A DNA stretch of 64,000 bases from Dictyostelium discoideum (taxonomy: Eukaryota), in the NCBI GenBank assembly GCA_000004695.1, contig CM000153.2, positions 4,544,001 to 4,608,000 of the forward strand. Direction: 5' to 3'. The notes under the pieces were generated by a model that was not told the DNA's origin, ran no database searches, and saw only the letters and a program-made list of their open reading frames with translations. The position numbers and the translations under genes are program-made. Shown here in pieces: positions 1,406 to 60,605 of this stretch; the stretch's first letter is position 1, and every line of letters starts with the position of its first letter.

Positions 1406-2999
1406 ATCATTTAAATCTAATTTAATAATAGGGAGGGCCCCCCATCCCGGTGATGCCCCTAATAATTCTTGTTTTTTTTCTTTGTCGTTGTTTTTTTGTA
1501 TATAAATCTAATCAAAAAAAAAAATATTATTACTTTAATTTTAATTTTATTACACTGAATTTTTGTATTTGTTAATGTTGTATTTGCTATTTGTAAAATA
1601 ATATTTTATGGGTGAATTTTCTTTCATTTTATAGTTTATTTTTTTGAACTTTTATAAAAAAAAAAATTAATTAAAAATTAAAAAAAAAAAAAAAAAAAAA
1701 TGTTAACAAAAATACTAAGAACTGTTATCTGTATTGATTTCTATTTTAAAATATATTGTTGCTGTGAATCTTTGAAAAAAACTAAATTAATAAAAATTGT
1801 TGTTGTGTGGTAAAAAAAAAAAAAAGAAAAAAAAAAAGAAAAAAAAAAAAAAATTAATTGTTTTTTTGATTATTTGCAGGATAGGGAAAATATCTCAAAT
1901 TTTTTAATAATGGGAATTGTTTTTTTTTTTAATTTGTATTATTTTTTTTTTCTTTTCCAAAAACATTTTTTTTATTCCTACCACTAAAATTAAAAATTAT
2001 AATTTTTTAAATTAAAAAAGGATAAACTTGATTTTAATATTATTATTTTTGATAAAAGAAAAAAAAATAAAAAAAAAAAAATGAAATAAAACTTTCGTGT
2101 TTTTTCTTTTAGTCATTTCAAAACTTTTTTCTAACTCATAAAACCAAGCAAATTTTTTTTTTAAAAAAATTAATTATTAACCATTGCACAATTTAATAAG
2201 AATTTTTAGGTGTAATAAAAAAAGAAAAAAAAAAAAAATTAAAAATAATTTAAAAAAAAAAAACAGTTTATATTTTTTTTTCCTTTTATGGAATAAGTAA
2301 GTATTTTTTTTTTTTTTTTTTTTTTAAAGTCGTTTTTTGTTTTTTTAAATTTATTTATTTATTTATAATAAAAATATTAAAAATAAAATAAAATAAAATA
2401 AAATAAAAAAAAAAAAAAAAGTTTAAATCAAGAAAAAAAAAAAAACAACAAATAAATCAAAAAAAAAAAAAAAAAAAAAAAACAAAAATAAAACAAAACA
2501 AAACAAAACAAATAAACCAAACAAGATTTAACACTTTAGTTTATATGTAAGAAAGTTTTTTTTTATTGTTAAATTCCATAGTTTTTTTTTATTTTTTTTT
2601 TTTATTTTTATTTTTTTTAAATTAATTTTTTTTTTCTTAGTATATAGGTGGTAAGATATTTTTTTATTTTAAAATCTAAGAAAAAAAAAAAATATCTTTG
2701 AACATTTTTCTCATTTTTTTCAAACTTTTAATTAAAGGATCTCAATTGCGTGTTAATTTTTAATTTTAAATTTTTTTTTTTTTTACTTTACCATCCCTTT
2801 TTTATTTATATCTCCTTTTTTATTAGTTTCTCCTAAATTATTTTAAAATTAAACCAATGTTTAAAATTATTATTTGTAATAGCATATTTAATTATATCCC
2901 AAATATTTCTAAATTTGGTTATTCATTTTTAATTTAATTTTTTTTTTTTTTTTTTTTTTTATCTTTGTTTCCTCCTTTTTTTTTATTTTTTTATTTTTC

Positions 3000-3037
<38 letters not shown>

Positions 3038-3449
3038 ATAAATAGAAAATCCATTTAAAGGTAAATTATTAAATCATAATAAGATTCCAAAAACAGAAAA
3101 AAAAATATTATAATCGATTGTATCTTATTGATTTTTTTTTCAATAGATTAATCTTTGTTTTTACTTTACATAATCATTGTTTTTATCATTATTTTAAAAA
3201 ATATTAGATTCACTTTTAAAAATACAAATAAAAATAAAAAATAAAAATAAAAAAAAATATTATAAATATTTGTCAGATTTTAAAATTAAGATTAAAATTA
3301 AAATTAAAATTAAAAATTAATTATAAAATGTATTTCGATACACTTATTACTTAAATAATAATTTATAAAATATTATTTTATATTTTTAAAAATACATTTA
3401 AAAAGATTAATATCAATTTAAAATAGAATGATCACCCAAATCTCATTGG

Positions 3450-3482
<33 letters not shown>

Positions 3483-5308
3483 ATTATATAAAATTGTATA
3501 AAATTAAAATTATAAATTTAAATTTAAATTTAAATATATTTGTTTGAATCAAATTTAACATCATCCAAATTACACATTCTACAGATATTAATAATTTGTA
3601 AATTTCCAATAAAAAGAAAGAAATAAACCTCTTGTTATTAAAATTTTTTGAATAAATAAATTTTCTTATTTTACAAAAAAAAAAAAAAAAAAAAAATCAA
3701 TTAACCACACAAATATCTACCACTACAACTACCAACAACATGGTGGATATTTGGGTGGTTTGTATGTAAAGTTTGTAAATTACCTCTTTTGGTAGTTTTT
3801 TTTATTTTTATTTTTTTTATTTTTTTTCCTGCTTTGTTCATGTGTGTGTGTGGGAAGGGGTTGACCCTTTTTACTATTAATTTTGTATTTTATTATCTTT
3901 TTTTAATATCAATAACAACACTATGATCACGCCTATAATTTTTTTTTTTTATATACAAATCCACTCTGGTTGGCTATAAACTTTACAATATTTATATATA
4001 TGTGTTTGATTTTATCTGTTTTTTTTTCAATTTAAATCCATATTATAGTAAAATAAAATATTAAATAAAATTTTTATTTTTAAAAAAAAAAAAAAAAAAA
4101 GAAAATCAAAAAATAGAGGTTGAAAAACAATTTCAAATTTATATAAATATCATAAATCTATTTTTTTTTTTTTTTTTTCTTTTTTTTTCCCCCAGACCGT
4201 GCTTTTAATCAAACAAATTATTTTACTTTTTATTAATAATTTTAAAAAAAGTAATAATTATTTTTTTTTTAAATAATTTGACACAACAAATATACCAATA
4301 AATATTGCACATGTGTTTTTGTTTGTTTTTTTTTTTAAAATTTATTTTGAAATTAAATCTTTTTTATAATAATTTATTTTAAAATTTTATATATAAATTT
4401 TTTTTTTTTTTTTTTTATAATTTGTTTATTTATTTTACTTTACTCTATACTTTTTTTTTTTTTATTTTTTTATTTTTTTTTTTTATCATTTTAATAAAAC
4501 TAAAATTTATTTATTTATTTAATAAAATATATTTTTATATTTGTAAAATATTAATCAATATTAACTTTTTTTTTTTTTTTTTCCGACTTCAAATAGATTC
4601 TAAAAAAGGTAGGTTTTTTTTTTTTTTTTTTTAGAAATCAAAAGTTGCAAGTTGGAATTCAACGTTAGAATTAATTTTATTTATTTTATTTTTTTTTTTT
4701 TTTTTTTAATTTTTATTTTTTTTTTTTTACTAATTTTGGTTATATAAAAAATTTTTTTTTTTTTTTTTGTAATTTTGGTTTTTAAAAAAACAAATTTGTA
4801 TTTTTTTAAAAAAAACATTTAAAAAAAAGTAAAATATTGGAAGTACAAACACATTCTATTATTAGACATGGCAACATTTATTTCATCATTATAAAATAAT
4901 TACAAAAAAAAAAATTCCTTTTACATTTTTTTTTTTTTTTTTTTTTATCCAAAAAAATAAAAAAAATTAAATTAAATTTAATTATGTACGTTTGATTAAT
5001 TAATTATAACAATAAATTGTGTGTGTGTGTGTTAATTGACTCTTAATAAATTTGTAGATCAAATTAATAATTAAAAAAATAAAAAAATTAAATAAAATAA
5101 AAAAAAAACAATAAAATACTGCTTTTTTATGCAATGAGTATTAGTTTATAATAATATAAAAAAAAAAATTTTGTCATCTAAAAGTAATGTGTGTGGATAT
5201 ATTTAGAAAGTTAATAGCAGTTAATAATAAAAATTTAATAATTACAAAAAATAAAAATAAAAATTAAAATCAAAATTAACCACCCAATGTTCGATGCCAC
5301 CAAAAAAA

Positions 5309-19675: not shown

Positions 19676-19680
<5 letters not shown>

Positions 19681-19725
<45 letters not shown>

Positions 19726-20792
19726 TGGATTAACAAGATTGATATATGCCCATCTGGGTTAAAACAAGTTTTATTTAATATTTATTTAAAGGCTTATCTT
19801 TTAAGCTGAAGGGTTATTTTAATCATATGAATTGATCAAAAAATATAATATTTGGGAAAAATGATTCTGGAATACAAAAAAAATTAGCTGTTGTTTTTCT
19901 TACCTTGATCGTTGAAGGGAAAAGGATCTTAGGATCTTTGAAGTTATTATGGCCTTTTGCTGAAAAGTTTTTCAAAACTTTTGCTTTTTTGATGAATTCA
20001 AAAGGGGCCAATTTGGGCCATTTCTTTAAAAGGGAGCTGTATGATAGGGATTCCTCTGTTAAAGGATCTTCCCTGTATATTTGATTGCAAATCCAAATCC
20101 AAATGTTGGGGAGGATAAGGGCCATTAGGTTTCTATATGCGAATGATCTGGTTAAAACATAACCTATTGCTTTATAGTTCCATTCAAAGTATCTTGTGAA
20201 TCTGTGGTGGCGTAATCTGCATTCCTTCTTGATCTTTTGGCTGTCGGTGATAATTTGGAGTTATTCTATTAATGAAATTGTTATTTGCCTAATTCTTGTA
20301 TGGTGCCAGTTTTTACCTTTGCCTGTGGTGATATAGATGAAATTTTTGAGTTTATTTATTTTTATGAATTGTTTTGTCTTCTTGCATGAGAAGAACAGGT
20401 GACCGTATGGGTCTTTGCTCATATCTTCTTTGCAGAGTGGGCATTGTTTGTTGTGAAGGTAGTTTATTGGAAGGCATCTGGCATGGAATCTAAACATTGT
20501 GTCTCTTGTTTTAGGGTCTTTTATCTTCAGTATGTTGTTGAAGAGTTGATTATAGCTGTAGCCTCTTAAGTTTAGAGATGATTGGAATTCCGTTTTAGGG
20601 ATGGTTGGATTTTGGTCTTGAATTGTAGTATACCATTCTGCCAGTGAAAGTGGTTGTCCATTTTCGTTTTTTATGGATGTGAGATTATTGTTGAAGATTG
20701 CTTTTTTTATTCTTATTTTGTTCCATTCGTCTAAGTTTTCTTTTAGGTATCTGGATGTGAATTTGTTTTTTTGGATCTGATATTCCCAGCTT
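19681..20792 (-). mobile_element. 5'-truncated 3' fragment (about 1.07 kb plus an A tail of about 40) of a TRE3-type non-LTR retrotransposon (copy A). It has decayed coding capacity and sits immediately behind the poly(A) of copy B.
   Basis: About 93% identical to 20811..21880 of copy B. Ends on the plus strand in T(40) (19681..19720), which is the element's poly(A). Broken ORFs 19823..20125 and 20261..20497 encode the same C-terminal zinc-knuckle (CPLCKEDMSKDPYGHLFFSC) and tail as copy B. Confidence 0.7.
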
Positions 20793-22479
20793 TTTTTTTT
20801 TTTTTTTTTTAATATTGGATTAACAAGATTGATATATGTCCATCTGTGTTAATACGAGTTTTTATTTAATATTTATTTATAGGCTTATCATTTAAGCTGA
20901 AGGGTTATTTTAATCATATGAATTGATCAAAAGATATAATATTTGGGAGAGATGATTCTGGAATACAATAGTAATTAGCTGTTGTTTTTCTTAGCTTGAT
21001 CGTTGAGGTGAGAAGGATCTTAGGATCTTTGAAATTATTATGGTCTTTTGCTGATAAGTTTTTCAGATCTTTTGCTTTTTTGATGTATTCTAGAGTGGCC
21101 AATTTGTGCCATTTCTTTAGAAGGGAGCTGTATGATAATGATTCATTTGTTAAAGGATCTTCACTGTATATTTGATTGCAAATCCAAATCCAAATGTTGT
21201 GGAGGATAAGGGCCATTAGGTTTCTATATGCGAATGATCTGGTTAGATCATAGTCTATTGCTTTATAGTTCCATTCAAAGTATTCTTTGTGGAATCTGTG
21301 GTTGGCGTAATCTGCATTCACTTCTTGATCTTTTTTGGCTGTCGGTGATAATTTTGGAGTTATTCTATTAATGAAATTGTTATTTTGCCTAATTCTTGTA
21401 TGATGCCAGTTTTTACCTTTGCCTGTGGTAATATAGATGAAATTTTTGAGTTTATTTATTTTTATGAATTGTTTTGTTTTCTTGCATGAGAAGAACAGGT
21501 GACCGTATGGGTCTTTGCTCATATCTTCTTTGCAGAGTGGGCATTGTTTGTTGTGAAGGTAGTTTATTGGAAGGCATCTGGCATGGAATCTAAACATTGT
21601 GTCTCTTGTTTTAGGGTCTTTTATCTTCAGTATGTTGTTGAAGAGTTGATTATAGCTGTAGCCTCTTAAGTTTAGAGATGATTGGAATTCCGTTTTAGGG
21701 ATGGTTGGATTTTGGTCTTGAATTGTGGTATACCATTCTGCCAGTGAAAGTGGTTGTCCATTTTCGTTTTTTATGGATGTGAGATTATTGTTGAAGATTG
21801 CTTTTTTGATTCTTATTTTGTTCCATTCGTCTAAGTTTTCTTTTAGGTATCTGGATGTGAATTTGTTTTTTTGGATTTGATATTCCCAGCTTTTGTGATG
21901 AGATGAGTTTGTTTGTTTGGTTTCTAGTGCTAGGATGAATTGGTTTATGATCCAAAGTTTCTGCGCCAGTTGTCTCAATTCTATATTCCAAATGTTCCAG
22001 CCCCCTACTTTTAGTGGGTATCTTGCTCTTTTGGTTCTCATTAAATTAATAACTTGAAATCCACTAGCATTTTTGTTGTTTGGTGCCGATAAAAACCATT
22101 CGACTAATTTATTGATTTGGTTTAATTCCTCTTCCTTAAAGTTCTCTACATATGAATAGTAGGTTAATTTAGAGAGTGCGAATGCTTTGAGGATGTTGGT
22201 TTTGGTTTTGATTGTTGAGTCAGTGGTTTTCCATAGTACTAAGGATGATCTTATTGTGTTTAATATTTCTGGCATTTTTCTTGTTATCCCTTTGCCTGTG
22301 AAGAAGTATCCCAAGTATCTTTCTGGATTTGTAGATATTGGAATTCTTTGGTTGGTATTGTCTGGGTTGCCTATAAGAATTGATGAAGATTTGTCGATGT
22401 TTAGTTTTGAGGAAGTGGCTTTGCAAAATGAATTGAAGTGTTGTAGTACTAATTCAAGTTGTTAAAGTCTGGGACCATT
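20793..22479 (-). mobile_element. 3' part (about 1.67 kb plus A18 tail) of a TRE3-type non-LTR retrotransposon (copy B). It has an intact 466-aa ORF2 C-terminal region. The 5' side runs into an assembly gap.
   Basis: Minus ORF 20914..22314 has no RT catalytic core but has the C-terminal C..C...H....C motif and tail (ILHNIWIWICNQIYSEDPLTNE). This is architecturally like the TRE3 copy at 54457..57041 (RCKICGHLFRDPYSHLFTLC...IAHQLWKIICHKLFNTDE). Poly(T) at 20793..20810 is its poly(A). Confidence 0.7.
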
Positions 22480-22579
22480 NNNNNNNNNNNNNNNNNNNNN
22501 NNNNNNNNNNNNNNNNNNNNNNNNNNNNNNNNNNNNNNNNNNNNNNNNNNNNNNNNNNNNNNNNNNNNNNNNNNNNNNN
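22480..22579. other. Assembly gap (100 N).
   Basis: Run of n. Confidence 1.
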
Positions 22580-46676: not shown

Positions 46677-47594
46677 TTAATCAAAGAGACCCATACCCAT
46701 ATCATCATCTGATTCTTCTTTCTTTTCTTCGACGACGACTTTCTTGGCAGCGGCAGCTGGAGCAGCAGCGGATGGAGCGGCAGCAACTGGGGCAGCAGCA
46801 GCGGCTGATTTGAATTTTTCAGCAGCATCGAAAGTGTAAGAGGTTTCGAATGAGATGGCTAATAAATTCTTGAAAGCATTCATGACTGAATGTGGAATTG
46901 AAGCAACGGTTGGGTAACCAATTTCCAAGGAGATGGCAGCAATGTTGAAGATACCTTGTTTGAATTTGTTGATGAGATCTTCTTCAGAGATAGATGGTGA
47001 ATAACAGGCACCAGCATCATAGATGATTTTTGGTTCTAAACCATAGGTGAATGGTTTGATGTTCAATTTTTGTAAGAGGGTAGCTTCTGAGGCACCAACT
47101 TTTTGACCGGTTTTAATGATGTGGACTTCATTGACGATATCGATTTGACCTCTGTTGATTTTAGTGGCAATCTTTAAATCTTGGAGGAAAGAGGTTTGGG
47201 TTGGTTCCATACCAGTTGGACCGGCTGGGATGATAACATCGTTTGGAGCGAAAACACCTGCTTTAGCTGGGGCACCAACACGTTGAGTATTGATAACACG
47301 TTTAACTTCAGCGATGTTATCTTTACAGAAAATGATACAGGTGTTTTGTTTTAAGTAGGTATTTAAGGCATCGAGTTCTGGTTTAGAATCAGCTAAATCA
47401 CGGATGACCTTACGGATCATAGTCTTCTTACCCATGAGAACGGCACCGATACCACGGATGGATTTTCTGATCTTTTGTAATTGGCTTGAACCTACAAAAT
47501 CAGCTTCGGCGACGATCATTTTGTCGTAAGTGGTGAAAAGCTTGGTAGCTTTTTCAATGAAAACGTTCTTTCTTTTACTTCCTGCCCCGGACAT
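46677..47594 (-). CDS. rplp0: 60S acidic ribosomal protein P0 (uL10), 305 aa, single exon. GC content is markedly elevated (a highly expressed gene).
   Basis: Full-length collinear match to P0: MSGAGSKRKNVFIEKATKLF...VGSSQLQKIRKSIRG.AVLMGKKTMIRKVIRD..., and the C-terminal acidic stalk tail ...EEKKEESDDDMGMGLFD. Confidence 0.95.
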   Translation of the reverse strand: MSGAGSKRKNVFIEKATKLFTTYDKMIVAEADFVGSSQLQKIRKSIRGIGAVLMGKKTMIRKVIRDLADSKPELDALNTYLKQNTCIIFCKDNIAEVKRVINTQRVGAPAKAGVFAPNDVIIPAGPTGMEPTQTSFLQDLKIATKINRGQIDIVNEVHIIKTGQKVGASEATLLQKLNIKPFTYGLEPKIIYDAGACYSPSISEEDLINKFKQGIFNIAAISLEIGYPTVASIPHSVMNAFKNLLAISFETSYTFDAAEKFKSAAAAAPVAAAPSAAAPAAAAKKVVVEEKKEESDDDMGMGLFD

Positions 47595-53722: not shown

Positions 53723-53822
53723 NNNNNNNNNNNNNNNNNNNNNNNNNNNNNNNNNNNNNNNNNNNNNNNNNNNNNNNNNNNNNNNNNNNNNNNNNNNNNN
53801 NNNNNNNNNNNNNNNNNNNNNN
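53723..53822. other. Assembly gap (100 N) inside the TRE5-A-like element.
   Basis: Run of n. Confidence 1.
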
Positions 53823-54252
53823 AAGTGTTGTTGTTGATGTTTTTTCTCTTACTGATTATTTTTTCCTTTTTTTTGAAAATTTTGCGAAGCAAAATTTTCA
53901 AAAAAAAGAAAAAAATAAATTACAATAAAATAAAGAAATAAAGAAGTTTACTCTAAGTGTATTTTATTTTATTTTTTTTAAGTCTTTTTTTTATATGAAA
54001 AATGAAATAATCAAATAAAAAAAGTGTTGTTGTTGATGTTTTTTCTCTTACTGATTATTTTTTCCTTTTTTTTGAAAATTTTGCGAAGCAAAATTTTCAA
54101 AAAAAAGAAAAAAATAAATTACAATAAAATAAAGAAATAAAGAAGTTTACTCTAAGTGTATTTTATTTTATTTTTTTTAAGTCTTTTTTTTATATGAAAA
54201 ATGAAATAATCAAATAAAAAAAGTGTTGTTGTTGATGTTTTTTCTCTTACTC
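53823..54252. repeat. Tandem repeat with 199-bp unit, 2.15 copies (53823..54021, 54022..54220, partial 54221..54252). Interpreted as duplicated TRE5-A A-modules.
   Basis: The unit (aagtgttgttgttgatgttttttctcttactgattatttttt...) recurs with near identity. The third copy diverges after ...tttctcttact, which marks the element's 5' end. Confidence 0.7.
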
Positions 54253-54293: not shown

Positions 54294-54367
54294 GCCTTAG
54301 TAGCTCAGTTGGTACGAGCGTGAGACTGAAGATCTTAAGGTCGCTGGTTCGATCCCGGCCTGAGGCA
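54294..54367 (+). tRNA. tRNA-Phe (anticodon GAA), 74 nt.
   Basis: The cloverleaf folds by hand. Acceptor GCCTTAG/CTGAGGC plus discriminator A. D-arm GCTC-AGTTGGTAC-GAGC. Anticodon stem TGAGA/TCTTA with loop CTGAAGA. T-arm GCTGG-TTCGATC-CCGGC. Internal A box TAGCTCAGTTGG and B box GGTTCGATCC. Confidence 0.95.
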
Positions 54368-54405: not shown

Positions 54406-54416
54406 GTTCGACTCCC
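54406..54416 (+). promoter_or_regulatory. Extra B-box ('ex-B', GTTCGACTCCC) 38 bp downstream of the tRNA-Phe coding region.
   Basis: The sequence is a near-copy of the internal B box (GGTTCGATCCC). It sits in the 20-45 bp downstream window where Dictyostelium tRNA genes commonly carry a second B box (established for this organism). It lies between the tRNA and the TRE3 target-site duplication. Confidence 0.55.
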
Positions 54417-54438
54417 ATATAAAAATATAGAAAAAACC

Positions 54439-54456
54439 ATTTCACCCACAGTTAAA
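54439..54456 (+). repeat. Target-site duplication, left copy (ATTTCACCCACAGTTAAA), of the TRE3-like insertion.
   Basis: An identical 18-mer recurs at 57042..57059, immediately after the element's poly(A). Confidence 0.75.
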
Positions 54457-55122
54457 ATGAATTTTTTCGATAAACTTAAAGGTGAACTCAACTTTGGCGA
54501 AGAAGAGTTAAATAAAAAAACTATTCAAATAAGGTTATTCTACCCACATACCTTGGAATTGAATAGTAATTCAACAAAATTAATAGATAATTTCATAGTT
54601 AATGGTACTCTTAACATTGTCAGAAGACAAAAGGGTATAACAGTATTCGGTAGAATACTAAAAGAAAAATTCACATTATTACACGAGTGTTACAGCACTT
54701 TCAAGTATGAAGATTTTCCACTGCAAAAATTCATACTTTACACCCCAGGATATCACTATGTCCACTTTTACACATTTACAAAAAACATAATAAAAAAAAT
54801 AAACAATCAAATGGTAAAAGAAAACTGGGGATTGGAGCCATTACTAATAGATGAATGCAACATAGTACTGCTACCAGATGTGATTAGATATTCATGCATA
54901 CTATTATTTAATAAAGAAGATGATATCTCAATCATTGATGCTATAAAAGGTAGTAAGCATCCAATAAGAGCCTTCATCTCTGAATATAACAATAAAGAAA
55001 TAAGAGATGTTAGAAAAAAAAAAACACAAGTAATAAAAACCAACAACCAACAACTACAAATACAACTAAATCAATACCATCAACTCCACCAACAACTAAT
55101 GCATCAACAACCACACCAATAA
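54457..55122 (+). CDS. TRE3-like ORF1 (221 aa).
   Basis: Intact ORF starting at the element's 5' boundary. A Thr-rich region follows in another frame. Confidence 0.6.
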   Translation: MNFFDKLKGELNFGEEELNKKTIQIRLFYPHTLELNSNSTKLIDNFIVNGTLNIVRRQKGITVFGRILKEKFTLLHECYSTFKYEDFPLQKFILYTPGYHYVHFYTFTKNIIKKINNQMVKENWGLEPLLIDECNIVLLPDVIRYSCILLFNKEDDISIIDAIKGSKHPIRAFISEYNNKEIRDVRKKKTQVIKTNNQQLQIQLNQYHQLHQQLMHQQPHQ

Positions 55123-55318
55123 CAACCACACCAATAACAACCACACAAACAACAACCACACCAACAACAACCACACATCAATTACCAACAAGCAATACAA
55201 CAATCTACAACCTAAACAAAACTACTACTACTACTACTACTACTACTACAAAACCTATCAATAAAATTACTACAAGCAATGGTACCAAGTTTCCAATTGC
55301 CAGTAGTATTAGAAAATA

Positions 55319-56506
55319 ATGGAACAATTAAAATTATTACTATGGAACTGCAGAGGTAATCAATCAACCAACGCTAAGAATAAAACAGAAGAAACGATAA
55401 AAAGAATTGGCACTCAATTAGCACTCCTAACTGAAACTAATTTCAATGGATTCAACCACCACAAAACAATGTTCAACTTTGAAAGAATAGATCATGGTTC
55501 AGGTAAAGGAACTGGCATAGCAATAGAAAATAGAGATACAAGAAAAGGCCACATATCAATAAACTTCAAAGACGATGATGGTAGAATACTATCAATTAAA
55601 TACAATTCCTTTAATTCTATCAACATATTATTGATCTATGCTCCAGCGACTATATCTGAAAGAAACACCTTCATAATCAACTCAAAATCACTGTTTAAAA
55701 AATATAATTCAATCAACCATCAAATAATAGCAGGCGACTTCAATAACAACCACGATTGCAACAGCTTCTTCGGTACTGAATTACGTAAAATAATAGACCA
55801 AGACATGCTACTAGATACTGGTATTGAAGATAACACTCCAACATTTCCAAGATCAATGAAGAGACTAGATAGAATCTACTGTCATCCAACACTACTAAAC
55901 CAAAATTCAAAACTGGTAGTCCACAACACAGTATTTAACAAATCAGATCACTTTCCCATCACAATCACAATACAAACCAACAGAGAAACAACAACAACAA
56001 CAACAACCAAACTAGAAAGACTCCCTTGGACATTATGTAAAGAAATTCTCAACAACAAACATATACATGATGGGTTATCAGAATTAATCAGTAAGAACAA
56101 AGATAAGATCAAATCAGTGGAGGAATGGACGAAATTTAAAAATAATGTCATCAGAGATTATTTAAAAAAAGAACAAAACAAAATAAAGAAAGAAAAGAAC
56201 AAAAGAAAATACGTAATCCACAAATTACTTGGAAATAGTGATATCATTCCAAAGATGAGAAAAGAACTCAATGAAGAAATAAGTAGAATATTAGAAGAAG
56301 AAAGAAAGGTAAAAGCATGGGATATCAAATTAAAACTCCACCTGCATCAAGAAACACCAAGCAAATACCTCACAAGTATCCTTAAATCCAAGATCACTTC
56401 CAGGTATCAACCACGAAAGAGACACCAGATGCAAGATCTGTGGCCACCTTTTCAGAGACCCTTATTCTCACCTCTTCACTCTATGCCAAGATATCCTAGA
56501 TATTGA
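55319..56506 (+). CDS. TRE3-like ORF2, truncated. Holds the apurinic/apyrimidinic-endonuclease-like domain only, with the RT deleted.
   Basis: LWNCRG, IAGDFNN and SDHFPI motifs of L1-type endonucleases. No FADD RT motif anywhere in the element. Confidence 0.7.
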   Translation: MEQLKLLLWNCRGNQSTNAKNKTEETIKRIGTQLALLTETNFNGFNHHKTMFNFERIDHGSGKGTGIAIENRDTRKGHISINFKDDDGRILSIKYNSFNSINILLIYAPATISERNTFIINSKSLFKKYNSINHQIIAGDFNNNHDCNSFFGTELRKIIDQDMLLDTGIEDNTPTFPRSMKRLDRIYCHPTLLNQNSKLVVHNTVFNKSDHFPITITIQTNRETTTTTTTKLERLPWTLCKEILNNKHIHDGLSELISKNKDKIKSVEEWTKFKNNVIRDYLKKEQNKIKKEKNKRKYVIHKLLGNSDIIPKMRKELNEEISRILEEERKVKAWDIKLKLHLHQETPSKYLTSILKSKITSRYQPRKRHQMQDLWPPFQRPLFSPLHSMPRYPRY

Positions 56507-57041
56507 AAAAACCATCATATCAACAGTTAACAAATTATCATTCATCAAAATCCACAGATGGTCAATGGAAACCTTAGACATATCAAAATACAACAGAACT
56601 GAGAGAATCTTCCCCAATCTCATAGGAATAATAGCACACCAATTATGGAAGATAATCTGTCACAAATTGTTCAACACTGATGAAAGCAAACCAGAGCCAA
56701 AATTCGAACAAAAGGTCATAGAAACAGAATTACTAAATCTCATCGAAACTGAAAAATTCATCACACTAAAGAAAATCAAACACGACGAAGCAATACTAAA
56801 AAACACCAATCAAGATCTTCACAAATACAAATTCAACAAAGCCTGGCAAACCCCAGCAGCTCCGAACCCTCTTCCAATTTAAGTAGTAGTAAAAAAAAAA
56901 AAAAAAAAAAAAAAATAATATAATATAGTTTAAAAAATTTAATACAATTGAATAATAAAAATAAAACCGTTTAACAAACACCGCCGAAAAGACACAAGGA
57001 CATTCCTTGAAGGTCTGATCACAGGTAAAAAAAAAAAAAAA

Positions 57042-57059
57042 ATTTCACCCACAGTTAAA
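57042..57059 (+). repeat. Target-site duplication, right copy (ATTTCACCCACAGTTAAA).
   Basis: Identical to 54439..54456. Confidence 0.75.
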
Positions 57060-57183
57060 TTAATTATTTTTATTTCTTTTACTGGGATAATTGAAAACAT
57101 TAGAATTTAAACATTTCTTTTTAAAATTCAAATTCCTTAAATAAAGCTATTAATTATTCTATATTTCCTTTAAAGGATAAACT

Positions 57184-57191
57184 ATGATCAA

Positions 57192-57222
<31 letters not shown>

Positions 57223-57241
57223 TCATACCCAACTATATTTT

Positions 57242-57275
<34 letters not shown>

Positions 57276-57294
57276 TCATACCCAACTATATTTT

Positions 57295-57334
<40 letters not shown>

Positions 57335-57350
57335 ATCTTCATTTTTTCTA
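57184..57350 (+). repeat. Tandem array of about 54-bp units. Each unit is a poly(A) of 20-35 nt followed by cttcatacccaactatattttc, which occurs twice (57220..57241 and 57274..57295). A third, degenerate unit ends in gaatcttcattttttc.
   Basis: Direct reading. Confidence 0.6.
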
Positions 57351-58945
57351 TAAAAAAAAAAAGGGTGTATCTAACTCTTTATTTTTATTGTTTTATTATT
57401 TTTATAGATAATTGTGGATCATCTATGTATTAAATAATATATGAATCCTATTTAAAAAATGGCAGATGCTTTAAATATTTGTGTAGAATCTGACATATTC
57501 AATGAATCATATTTATCTCAATTTATATAATAATTTTAAATTTAAATAAAAAATCTAAATATGGTTTTTTTTTTTTTAAAGAGATAATTCATGGGTTTTG
57601 AAAGTATTTATTTTTATTTTTTATTTTTTATTTTTATTATTTTTAAAATAAAATTGAATAATAAAAAAAAAATAAAAAAAATAAAAAATATAAGAAAAAA
57701 AAAAATTAATCAATCTAAATCAATTTCTATTTTGAAAAAAAAAAAAAAAGAAAAAAAAAAAAAAAAAGTAATTAGGATGAATTTTCCTTATTGGGAAATA
57801 AAAAAAGTAAAAAGTATAATTTTTTTTTTGGAAATCAAGATCAAAAAATGTAACTCTTTTTGGGTTTACCAAATTTGGGTATCTTTTATTAAAAAAAAAA
57901 AAAAGTTTCAATTAAAATTTTTTAGTATAAAAAGACAAAAAATTATTAATTATTTTAAAAAAAAAAATAAATAAAATTTCAAAAAAAAAAAAAAAAAAAA
58001 AAAAAACAAAGAAATTTTACATTTTAGAAAAAACAAAGTTATAATTTTAATGTAAAAAAAAAAAAAAAAAAAAAAAAAAATTATAATTCTGGACATAAAA
58101 TATCAAAAGGTAAATTTTAATTTTAATTTTCTTATTTTTATTTTTTTAATTTTTCAAATATTTAATACATTAAATAATTTACCATTCTCTTTCTAATTAT
58201 TAGGTATAATGTAAAATTTATTTTTGTCTTTAAACTGTCCCAAATGAAATAAAACTTCCAACAGGTGTAATTAAATGTCAATACAACGGTTTTTTATTTT
58301 TTAAAAAAAAAAAGATAGTTTTATTAAGTGGTAGTTTATTTAGTATTGGTCGGTACTAACTCAATGTCTGAGAATCAAAGGATTTTATTTATTTTAAAAA
58401 ATAAATCTTTCAATTCTCAGGCTTTGCTAATTGGTAGATTGGTATTTAACAGCTTTCACTTAATAATATTTTTAAATTAAATAAACTAACTGATTGTCGA
58501 CAATAAACCATAATTTTACATGATAATTTGGACTTAATGCAAGGTAAACTATATTAATACTTTAATTCCAACACTATTTTATAAATATTGCAATTTTCTA
58601 ATAATATATATTTTAGATTGATCCAAGGATTTAATATCTGTCAACAGTACTATTAAAGGATATTGGAAGGTTAAAATCTAAACGTTAAAAAATAATATTA
58701 AATAAAATAAAATAAAATAAAAAAATATAAAAAAAATCTTATTTTAAAAACAAACAAACAATACATATTAATCATTAAATACTAATAGATTAAATTGTTT
58801 TTTATCCAATTAAAGGTCAAGATAAAATCGGGTAGATTTAATACTCGAAAAAAAAAAAAAAAAAAAAAAAAAAAAACAATAATAATTATAAAAAACAAAA
58901 ATAAATTAGGTTTTAATTGAGATGTATTATAGATTATTATAATTA

Positions 58946-59151
58946 ATGATTTCTAATATTAGATTTTATTTTTATTTTATTTTAATTATTTTCCCAATTA
59001 ATTATTTCTTAAAAAAAATAAAATTAACTATATAAAAATAAAACTTCAATATATTTATGTAGTTAATTTTATTCCTTTTTTATGAACTAATTAATTGAAA
59101 AAATAAAATAAAATAAAATTATAAAGGATAAAATCTAATATTAGAAATCAT
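58946..59151. repeat. Perfect 25-bp inverted repeat pair (ATGATTTCTAATATTAGATTTTATT at 58946..58970 and its reverse complement at 59127..59151) enclosing a 156-bp AT-rich spacer. About 335 bp upstream of the SDR gene.
   Basis: Direct reading. The reverse complement of the left arm equals the right arm. Confidence 0.8.
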
Positions 59152-59332
59152 TTTTAGGGTAATTTGATTGAAAATTCAAAAAAAACTATTTTTTATTTTT
59201 TTTTTAATTTTTTTTTTTTTTTTTTTAAAAATAAATTTGGAAGATTCTTTTTTTTTTTGATGTTCTTAGAAGATGACATAAGAAGATCAGCAATTTAATT
59301 AAATTTAATTAAAAATTAGATAAAAAAAATGA

Positions 59333-59369
<37 letters not shown>

Positions 59370-59486
59370 TGCAAAGATTGATTCTTATTTAAAGTTTTTT
59401 TTTTTTATTTTTAATCATTAAATAAAAATAAAATAAAAAACATACAAATAAATAAATAAAAAAGTAAAAAAAAAAAAATAATTAAA

Positions 59487-60368
59487 ATGAATTCAATTGA
59501 AAATAATAATAAAAATAATAATAAAAATAATAATAAGATTTGGTTAATCACAGGAACATCAAGTGGCATTGGTTTAGAATTAGTAAAGAAGTTATTAACA
59601 TATGGTTATAAAGTTTCAGCATTAACTCGTAGACCAGAAGAAATTGAAAAAGAGATTAAAGAAATTCAATTTGAAAAAGATAATTTATTAATTGTTAAAA
59701 CTGATATTACAAATAATGAATCAGTAAAGAGTGCAGTAGAAGAGACTATTAAACAGTTTGGTAGAATTGATGTGTTAGTAAATAACGCTGGTTATGGTTT
59801 AGTAGGTTCAATTGAAGAGTTATCAGATTCAGACGTTAGAAAGATATATGATGTAAATGTATTTGGTGTTTTAAATTTATTAAGAAATTCAACACCACAT
59901 TTTAGAAAACAAAAATCAGGTTTAATAATTAACATATCCTCTCAAATGGGTTGGGATAATATGGAATATTACTCAGCATATAGTTCAACTAAACATGCAG
60001 TTAATGCAATCACATTCTCTGCACAAAAAGAGTTAAAAGCATTTGGAGTGAATGTAATATTAGTTAGTCCAGGTGGATTTAGAACTGGTTTTGTTGCTGG
60101 TCAACAATCAAACTTTCAAGTACCTTCAAAATTAATTGATGAATACTCAACTCAATCATTCATTGAAATGTTTAATAAACACTCACCATATTCAAAAGGC
60201 GATCCTGAAAAAGCAGCTGAACTCTTAATTAAATTACCAACAATTGAAGAATTACCAAATAATTTATTCATTGGCTCTGATTCATTATCAGCTGCCAAAC
60301 AACAATTACAATCACATTTATTAGAAGCTGAAAAATGGTATGACCTTTCAATTTCAACTGATTATTAA
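59487..60368 (+). CDS. Short-chain dehydrogenase/reductase (classical SDR), 293 aa, single exon.
   Basis: Cofactor-binding motif TGTSSGIGLEL (TGxxxGxG), NNAGYG, and catalytic S...YSAYSSTKHAV (YxxxK). It has an Asn/Lys-rich N-terminus (NNNKNNNKNNNK). Confidence 0.85.
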   Translation: MNSIENNNKNNNKNNNKIWLITGTSSGIGLELVKKLLTYGYKVSALTRRPEEIEKEIKEIQFEKDNLLIVKTDITNNESVKSAVEETIKQFGRIDVLVNNAGYGLVGSIEELSDSDVRKIYDVNVFGVLNLLRNSTPHFRKQKSGLIINISSQMGWDNMEYYSAYSSTKHAVNAITFSAQKELKAFGVNVILVSPGGFRTGFVAGQQSNFQVPSKLIDEYSTQSFIEMFNKHSPYSKGDPEKAAELLIKLPTIEELPNNLFIGSDSLSAAKQQLQSHLLEAEKWYDLSISTDY

Positions 60369-60605
60369 AAATATTAAAAAAAATAAAAAAAAATAAAAAA
60401 AAATAAAAAAAAAAAAAAAAATAAATAAACCTTTTTGTAAATAATAAACCTTTCAATTTCAACAGAAAAAACCAAAACGAACTTCTGTAGATTAATTTTA
60501 TTTTAAGAGATGTTTATCTTTACTTTTTTTATTAGTTTATTTTCAAAAAGAAAAAATGATTATTTATACTATTCATTTTCATTTGGATCACATAAAAATA
60601 ATAAT

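Follow-up and report, generated by a model that had tools for sequence, protein, structure and literature searches.

Our analyses indicate that two exact copies of a 22 nucleotide (nt) sequence, CTTCATACCCAACTATATTTTC, which lie between long runs of A downstream of a tRNA-Phe gene of Dictyostelium discoideum, probably originated in a single recent tandem duplication that took place in situ through the misalignment of A-tracts, an event of an ordinary kind for this genome. The 135 bp that extend from the target-site duplication (TSD) of the main TRE3 at this site to the first of these A-runs are, judging from their homology, a 3' stub left by a further TRE3-type element that was truncated at its 5' side; this stub is newly recognised here and adds an unrecognised TRE3 fragment to the annotation downstream of the tRNA gene. 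The site as a whole is a stack of target-primed TRE3 insertions and retroelement debris. The 22-mer repeat is itself of little importance beyond annotation, and in a genome with 22% GC and about one long run of A or T per kb, repeats of the type "poly(A) + short unit" should not be read as scars of retrotransposition unless a parent element is found.

The tRNA-Phe locus and its TRE3 insertions

The window, by which we mean the whole stretch of 64,000 nucleotides that was analysed, consists of D. discoideum DNA (22% GC) in which the ribosomal protein P0 of strain AX4 is encoded at 46677-47594 and DDB_G0285835 is located at about 21 kb. The tRNA-Phe(GAA) gene is the Pol III target that draws TRE elements to the locus (Table 1). 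The motif found about 40 bp 3' of this gene is, as read from its sequence, likely an external B box (ex-B), and its equivalents are retained in three related genomes, designated L009 (ggttcgactccc), L008 (ggttcgaatccc) and L010 (tgttcgaatccc). The ex-B box has a role in the targeting of TRE3, a group of four subfamilies whose members insert 40-150 bp downstream of a tRNA gene or of an external B box and share the orientation of the tRNA (PMC5911963). Upstream of the tRNA gene, the minus strand carries a TRE5-A whose 199-bp A-module repeats are turned towards the tRNA. In the window (53723-54250) this TRE5-A contains a 100-N gap and just two full A-module repeats beside the tRNA, while a newer assembly (L001, 3757-4751) carries five full copies in an uninterrupted element.

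Table 1. Features of the tRNA-Phe locus and of the 22-mer repeat, in coordinates of the window
Feature	Position	Strand	Basis and remarks
tRNA-Phe(GAA) gene	54294-54367	+	ARAGORN; Rfam tRNA, 62.5 bits; kept in three relatives
Likely external B box, gttcgactccc	54407-54417	+	Read from sequence
Main TRE3, internally deleted, 2.6 kb	54457-57042	+	Family D13 assignment; TSD
TRE3-type 3' stub, 5'-truncated; by homology a second and different element	57060-57195	+	Homology to TRE3x terminal module (L008)
A25	57196-57220	+	Poly(A) tail of TRE3 stub and left flank of copy 1; length unchanged in second assembly
22-mer copy 1, CTTCATACCCAACTATATTTTC	57221-57242	+	
A31 spacer	57243-57273	+	A27 in second assembly
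22-mer copy 2	57274-57295	+	Same sequence and same boundaries as copy 1
A37	57296-57332	+	A30 in second assembly
gaatcttcattttttctat + A11 (earlier "third unit")	57333-57362	+	gaatcttcattttttctat at 57333-57351; A11 at 57352-57362
Ancestral intergenic DNA, tgtatctaactc...	57366-59027	+	Colinear with L008 and L009 by blastn; right edge of lineage-specific block

The main TRE3 is bracketed by a perfect 17-bp TSD, tttcacccacagttaaa (left copy 54440-54456, right copy 57043-57059), and an ORF with its APE (AP-endonuclease) domain shows 92% identity to a D. discoideum TRE3-like protein. Its 3' end has a composite structure (...gtagtagt-A25, a 111-nt terminal module and A16), and because all three of these parts are inside the TSD, this end was inserted as one unit. 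The same architecture, viz. a long internal A-run, a module of about 100 nt and a second A-tail, is seen in a second TSD-bracketed copy, TRE3x of L008 (3040-3935, minus strand; A43, 90-nt module, A19), a 5'-truncated TRE3-type insert with the TSD tgttgcgatg and an ORF with 64% identity to a TRE3 ORF2. Since the layout is contained within TSDs, such composites of A-run, module and A-tail have been mobilised as single units, and the layout may be what 3' transduction or tail stacking has left behind. The TRE5-A in the window has a similar internal A39.

The evidence for a second TRE3 fragment comes from the segment between the right TSD of the main TRE3 and the first A-run, which aligns with the terminal module of TRE3x with a Smith-Waterman score of 33. 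None of 1332 AT-rich windows used as background reached this score (15.7 +/- 3.2, maximum 25). The homology is significant over 57124-57192, with a weaker, tentative part upstream of it, and both the stub and the TRE3x module stop 3-6 nt short of their respective A-tails. Because the segment that precedes A25 is thus a TRE3-type 3' end that stops just before an A-tail, this A25 is read as a genuine retroelement poly(A) tail. A comparison of the left flank of the stub (catttcacccacag...) with the sequence that follows A25, which is the 22-mer, revealed no significant similarity that would mark a TSD of the stub's own. The TSD of the main TRE3 seems to overlap the first 4 nt of the stub, and a weak alignment tentatively places the stub as the older insertion and the main TRE3 as the later one. 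Two further likenesses, between the stub and the flank of a TRE3 in the tRNA-Gln locus L011 and between a TRE3 remnant in L009 and this block of the window, were at background level.

The stacking of TRE3-type elements is also seen elsewhere in the window (19678-22479, minus strand), where two copies of the DDB_G0285835 family are joined head-to-tail at a poly(A) tail. The first of these ends in ...gttaatccaatatt-A20 at 20791 and is followed directly by the second, which is 5'-truncated to about 1.1 kb and ends in ...gttaatccaatatt-A43 at 19678; by eye, the two are roughly 93% identical over the 3' UTR. A 100-N gap (22480-22579) removes the 5' part of the pair, and no tRNA is visible beside it in the window. 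The TRE3 fragments considered here differ widely in length (about 135 nt, 0.9 kb and 1.1 kb).

The orthologous tRNA-Phe loci of L008, L009 and L010 were located via ribosomal protein P0, and they show 86-90% nucleotide identity to the window (10-14% divergence). All three relatives retain the tRNA, a B-box-like motif and the sequence from 57366 onward, which is preceded in each by an A-rich tract. Between these conserved landmarks each lineage carries different TRE3 debris, and the stub and the 22-mer are found in none of the three. Hence, the block 57060-57332 is specific to the AX4 lineage. The comparison with these relatives does not identify the 22-mer as native DNA. At an equivalent position downstream of tRNA-Phe, L008 carries ttcaatctgtatgaaaagaaatt followed by A22 (2985-3045) and L009 carries aatttgtcaccaa (4870-4900), which is another lineage-specific difference of the type "short segment + long A-run" in TRE3 debris.

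Farther downstream of the repeat, a short-chain dehydrogenase (SDR) gene (59487-60368, in the region 59100-60450) has no counterpart at the orthologous site of L009 or of L010; L009 runs from the tRNA region into sequence corresponding to about 60971 onward in the window, and L010 reaches the equivalent of about 61268 at no more than about 0.5 kb from its tRNA. SDR genes of this type form a multi-copy family, near-identical paralogues are found in tgr/Arf-rich loci elsewhere, and four look-ups that approached the orthologous locus through the SDR gene led to paralogous loci. These observations suggest a lineage-specific gene duplication or insertion.

The 22-mer repeat and the search for its source

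The 22-mer occurs exactly twice in the window, and its copies are flanked by pure runs of 25, 31 and 37 A. The sequence-only reading had placed two exact copies, each behind an A-run, about 135 bp past the right TSD of the TRE3, and our coordinates confirm this, with 136 bp from the TSD to the first A-run. TRF describes the repeat as 2.5 copies of a period of 53 with 100% matches. The unit is unusually complex, with 7 G/C in its 22 nt, and in 100 dinucleotide-preserving shuffles not one match to the 22-mer arose, with up to 3 mismatches allowed. The site lies 2.1 kb from the nearest gene, and an Rfam search returned no match there. Both copies are also present in GCA_054883475.1, an independent assembly of the same D. 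discoideum lineage, which shows that the repeat is not an artefact of assembly. Over 10,178 bp this assembly differs from the window by seven gaps and no mismatches, and its three A-runs measure 25, 27 and 30. The differences in A-run length between the two assemblies (31 vs. 27 and 37 vs. 30), occurring without base mismatches, indicate that the tracts are labile or hard to sequence. The copy number is two in both assemblies, and thus shows no polymorphism between them.

The segment that follows A37 had been described as a third, degenerate unit. It shares with the 22-mer just CTTCAT and a T-run, a similarity at chance level (shuffle p = 0.44), so that it appears as a unit by its architecture alone and has no demonstrable kinship to the 22-mer at the sequence level. 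At this position the three relatives have an A-rich tract beside conserved sequence, and over 57333-57362 the sequences of L008, L009 and L010 can be aligned with the window only ambiguously.

If the 22-mer were the 3' terminus of an element, it should match the 3' end of a parent element. We compared it with six TRE 3' termini, viz. those of TRE5-A, the main TRE3, the TRE3 at 19.7 kb, the stub, TRE3x of L008 and the type-III TRE3 of L011. This last element belongs to a third TRE3 subfamily of the AX4 lineage, lies downstream of a tRNA-Gln gene and ends in ...tagtttatttatatc-A24. For the five termini from the window and L008, no alignment was better than those of shuffled 22-mers, and for the L011 terminus a scan that allowed up to 5 edits gave no match. 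Likenesses of the 22-mer to the TRE3 target site, to the stub end and to the TRE3x end that had been noticed by eye were at chance level in a shuffle test. No further copy was found, at up to 5 edits, in the Dictyostelium sequence scanned, which amounts to about 275 kb. The earlier statement that no element in the window ends with the 22-mer proved correct for TRE5-A, for the main TRE3 and for both TRE3 copies at 19.7-22.5 kb. Among the six TRE 3' ends and the 275 kb there is no element of which the 22-mer would be the 3' end, the same 275 kb contain no family of copies that would make it a minisatellite, and the 22-mer is absent from the tRNA-Gln/TRE3 locus and from the tRNA-Phe loci of the three relatives.

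Searches of public sequence collections yielded a single exact match to the 22-mer. It is located in a metagenome contig (L002 7400-7421; Ga0079037_100005910), inside a GC-rich bacterial coding region and in a very large collection, and was set aside as a chance match. Prokaryotic genomes and viral contigs gave no match; none of these three collections holds Dictyostelium genomes. A full-text literature search for the 22-mer sequence returned nothing. The first 22-mer could have originated as residual target DNA, as filler, as a short 3' transduction with the stub or as a single micro-insertion.

Origin of the two copies

Long homopolymers are part of the background in this DNA. Runs of A or T of at least 20 number 59 in the 64 kb, about one per kb, so that the presence of such a run does not by itself point to retrotransposition here. 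In mutation accumulation experiments with D. discoideum, indels outnumber base substitutions, and simple repeats, for the most part homopolymers of A:T, account for about a third of these indels (PMC7466956). Duplications with the architecture of the 22-mer repeat also arise without retroelements. A perfect example is found in L011 (minus strand, 21267-21339; A13-TTAGTTATACAACC-A8TA14-TTAGTTATACAACC-A23), about 35 bp upstream of the ATG of a gene, 11 kb from the sole tRNA of the locus and with no retroelement. Older, degenerate cases in which an A-run and a unit occur twice are present in the window at 4716-4789, with no tRNA or TRE nearby, and at 57988-58121.

The 22-mer repeat has the hallmarks of such a duplication, viz. 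head-to-tail copies with equal boundaries, alongside direct repeats of at least 25 A. A single duplication is favoured because the two copies are identical and share the same 5' and 3' boundaries, which would be improbable for independent random 5' truncations. The process would have started from a 22-bp segment with the poly(A) tail of the old TRE3 stub on its left and, on its right, the A-rich tract in front of the conserved intergenic DNA. Misalignment of these A-tracts, by replication slippage or by unequal sister-chromatid exchange, would then have doubled the "A-run + 22-mer" unit, after which the lengths of the A-runs would have drifted. In the order of events that we propose, the stub would have come first and the main TRE3 after it, and the duplication would be late, given that its copies are still identical. 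Against this interpretation it may be argued that the 22-mer, which is absent in the three relatives, may have arrived by a retroelement-related event, that it sits at a TRE3-type landing position in the TRE3 orientation, that other homopolymer-flanked duplications in our sample are few and mostly of low complexity, and that the copy number does not differ between the two assemblies.

It is possible, but unlikely, that a single retrotransposition event brought in the repeat as non-native sequence. The RNA of the stub may have been read through its tail into 22 nt of source flank, a 3' transduction that would leave stub-A25-22mer-A(n) and would still require slippage for the second copy, or a template jump back to the poly(A) end may have caused the tail to be copied twice. 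This explanation draws on the TSD-bracketed TRE3 copies described above, in which an internal A-run, a module and an A-tail have already moved as units, and on the position of the 22-mer directly behind the tail of the stub and its absence in the relatives. However, no source locus is seen in the sequence examined, a transduced segment of 22 nt would be very short, and template jumping would have to halt twice at one nucleotide. If a parent element or a source locus were found, the repeat would become a compact example of tail stacking or of 3' transduction by tRNA-targeted LINE-like elements.

We consider it quite improbable that the units go back to two or three separate target-primed insertions, each with an extreme 5' truncation, each primed on the A/T tract of the previous tail, and each derived from a retroelement or polyadenylated RNA, not seen here, that terminates in the 22-mer. 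The locus is indeed a proven landing site of TRE3 with at least two other insertions, the units have the orientation expected of TRE3, stacking of TRE3 copies at a poly(A) tail does occur (as at 19678-22479), and the 22-mer is specific to its lineage. The presence of A31 and A37 behind the units is weak evidence, in view of the frequency of such runs in this DNA. The distance of the 22-mer from the tRNA or the ex-B box depends on the order of events, being about 90 bp without the stub and the main TRE3 and about 250 bp with the stub. Both units, however, begin at the same nucleotide, whereas the truncation lengths of the TRE3 fragments at hand vary widely; the 22-mer matches none of the six TRE 3' ends and has no further copy in the 275 kb, which include the tRNA-Gln/TRE3 locus; and only A-runs, which could mask an A-only TSD, flank the units, with no TSD visible. 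The pile-up of target-primed events at a tRNA hotspot that the sequence-only reading had proposed is borne out for the TRE3 insertions, of which the stub and the main TRE3 do stack; the 22-mer units, with their identical boundaries and without a matching TRE 3' end, are better read as a local duplication. A related proposal, to which we assign a similarly low likelihood, is that TRE3-type reverse transcription at tRNA-proximal A-tracts deposits tail-only micro-units (about 20 nt + poly(A)) by reinitiation, template jumping or very short 3' transduction. If this were true, the 22-mer units would be a snapshot of how TREs gain 3' ends composed of an internal A-run, a module and an A-tail.

An assembly artefact, which might be suspected because homopolymer-rich regions are error-prone and the nearby TREs in the window carry two 100-N gaps, or a functional cis-element (a promoter or terminator motif) under selection is very hard to credit, as both copies recur in the independent assembly, the nearest gene and the Rfam result lend a cis-element no support, and the motif is missing in relatives that retain the flanking DNA.

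Comparison with known systems

In the 3' transduction known from the biology of L1, a LINE element, non-element sequence follows the genomic A-tail of the element and is itself followed by another A-tail. By analogy, the 22-mer may be compared with such sequence, since it is likewise situated between A-tails, and the TRE3 3' ends with internal A-runs resemble this layout; the 22-mer segment is, in contrast, very short, and no source locus was found for it in the sequence examined. With 5'-truncated insertions of the non-LTR element TRE3 the repeat has in common a poly(A)-ended unit, the orientation of the tRNA, a position in the TRE3 landing zone and verified TRE3 fragments adjoining it. It differs from them in that no parent 3' end was found, the truncation points are equal, no TSD is recognisable and its 22 nt are far shorter than any TRE3 fragment observed here. 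Compared with homopolymer-flanked tandem duplications, i.e., the birth of minisatellites by slippage or unequal exchange, the 22-mer unit is unusually complex and perfectly conserved, abuts a retroelement tail and is missing in relatives. It shares with them, however, the head-to-tail arrangement, the equal boundaries, the long A-tracts as direct repeats and the lability of these tracts, and the pattern is also seen in ordinary intergenic DNA.
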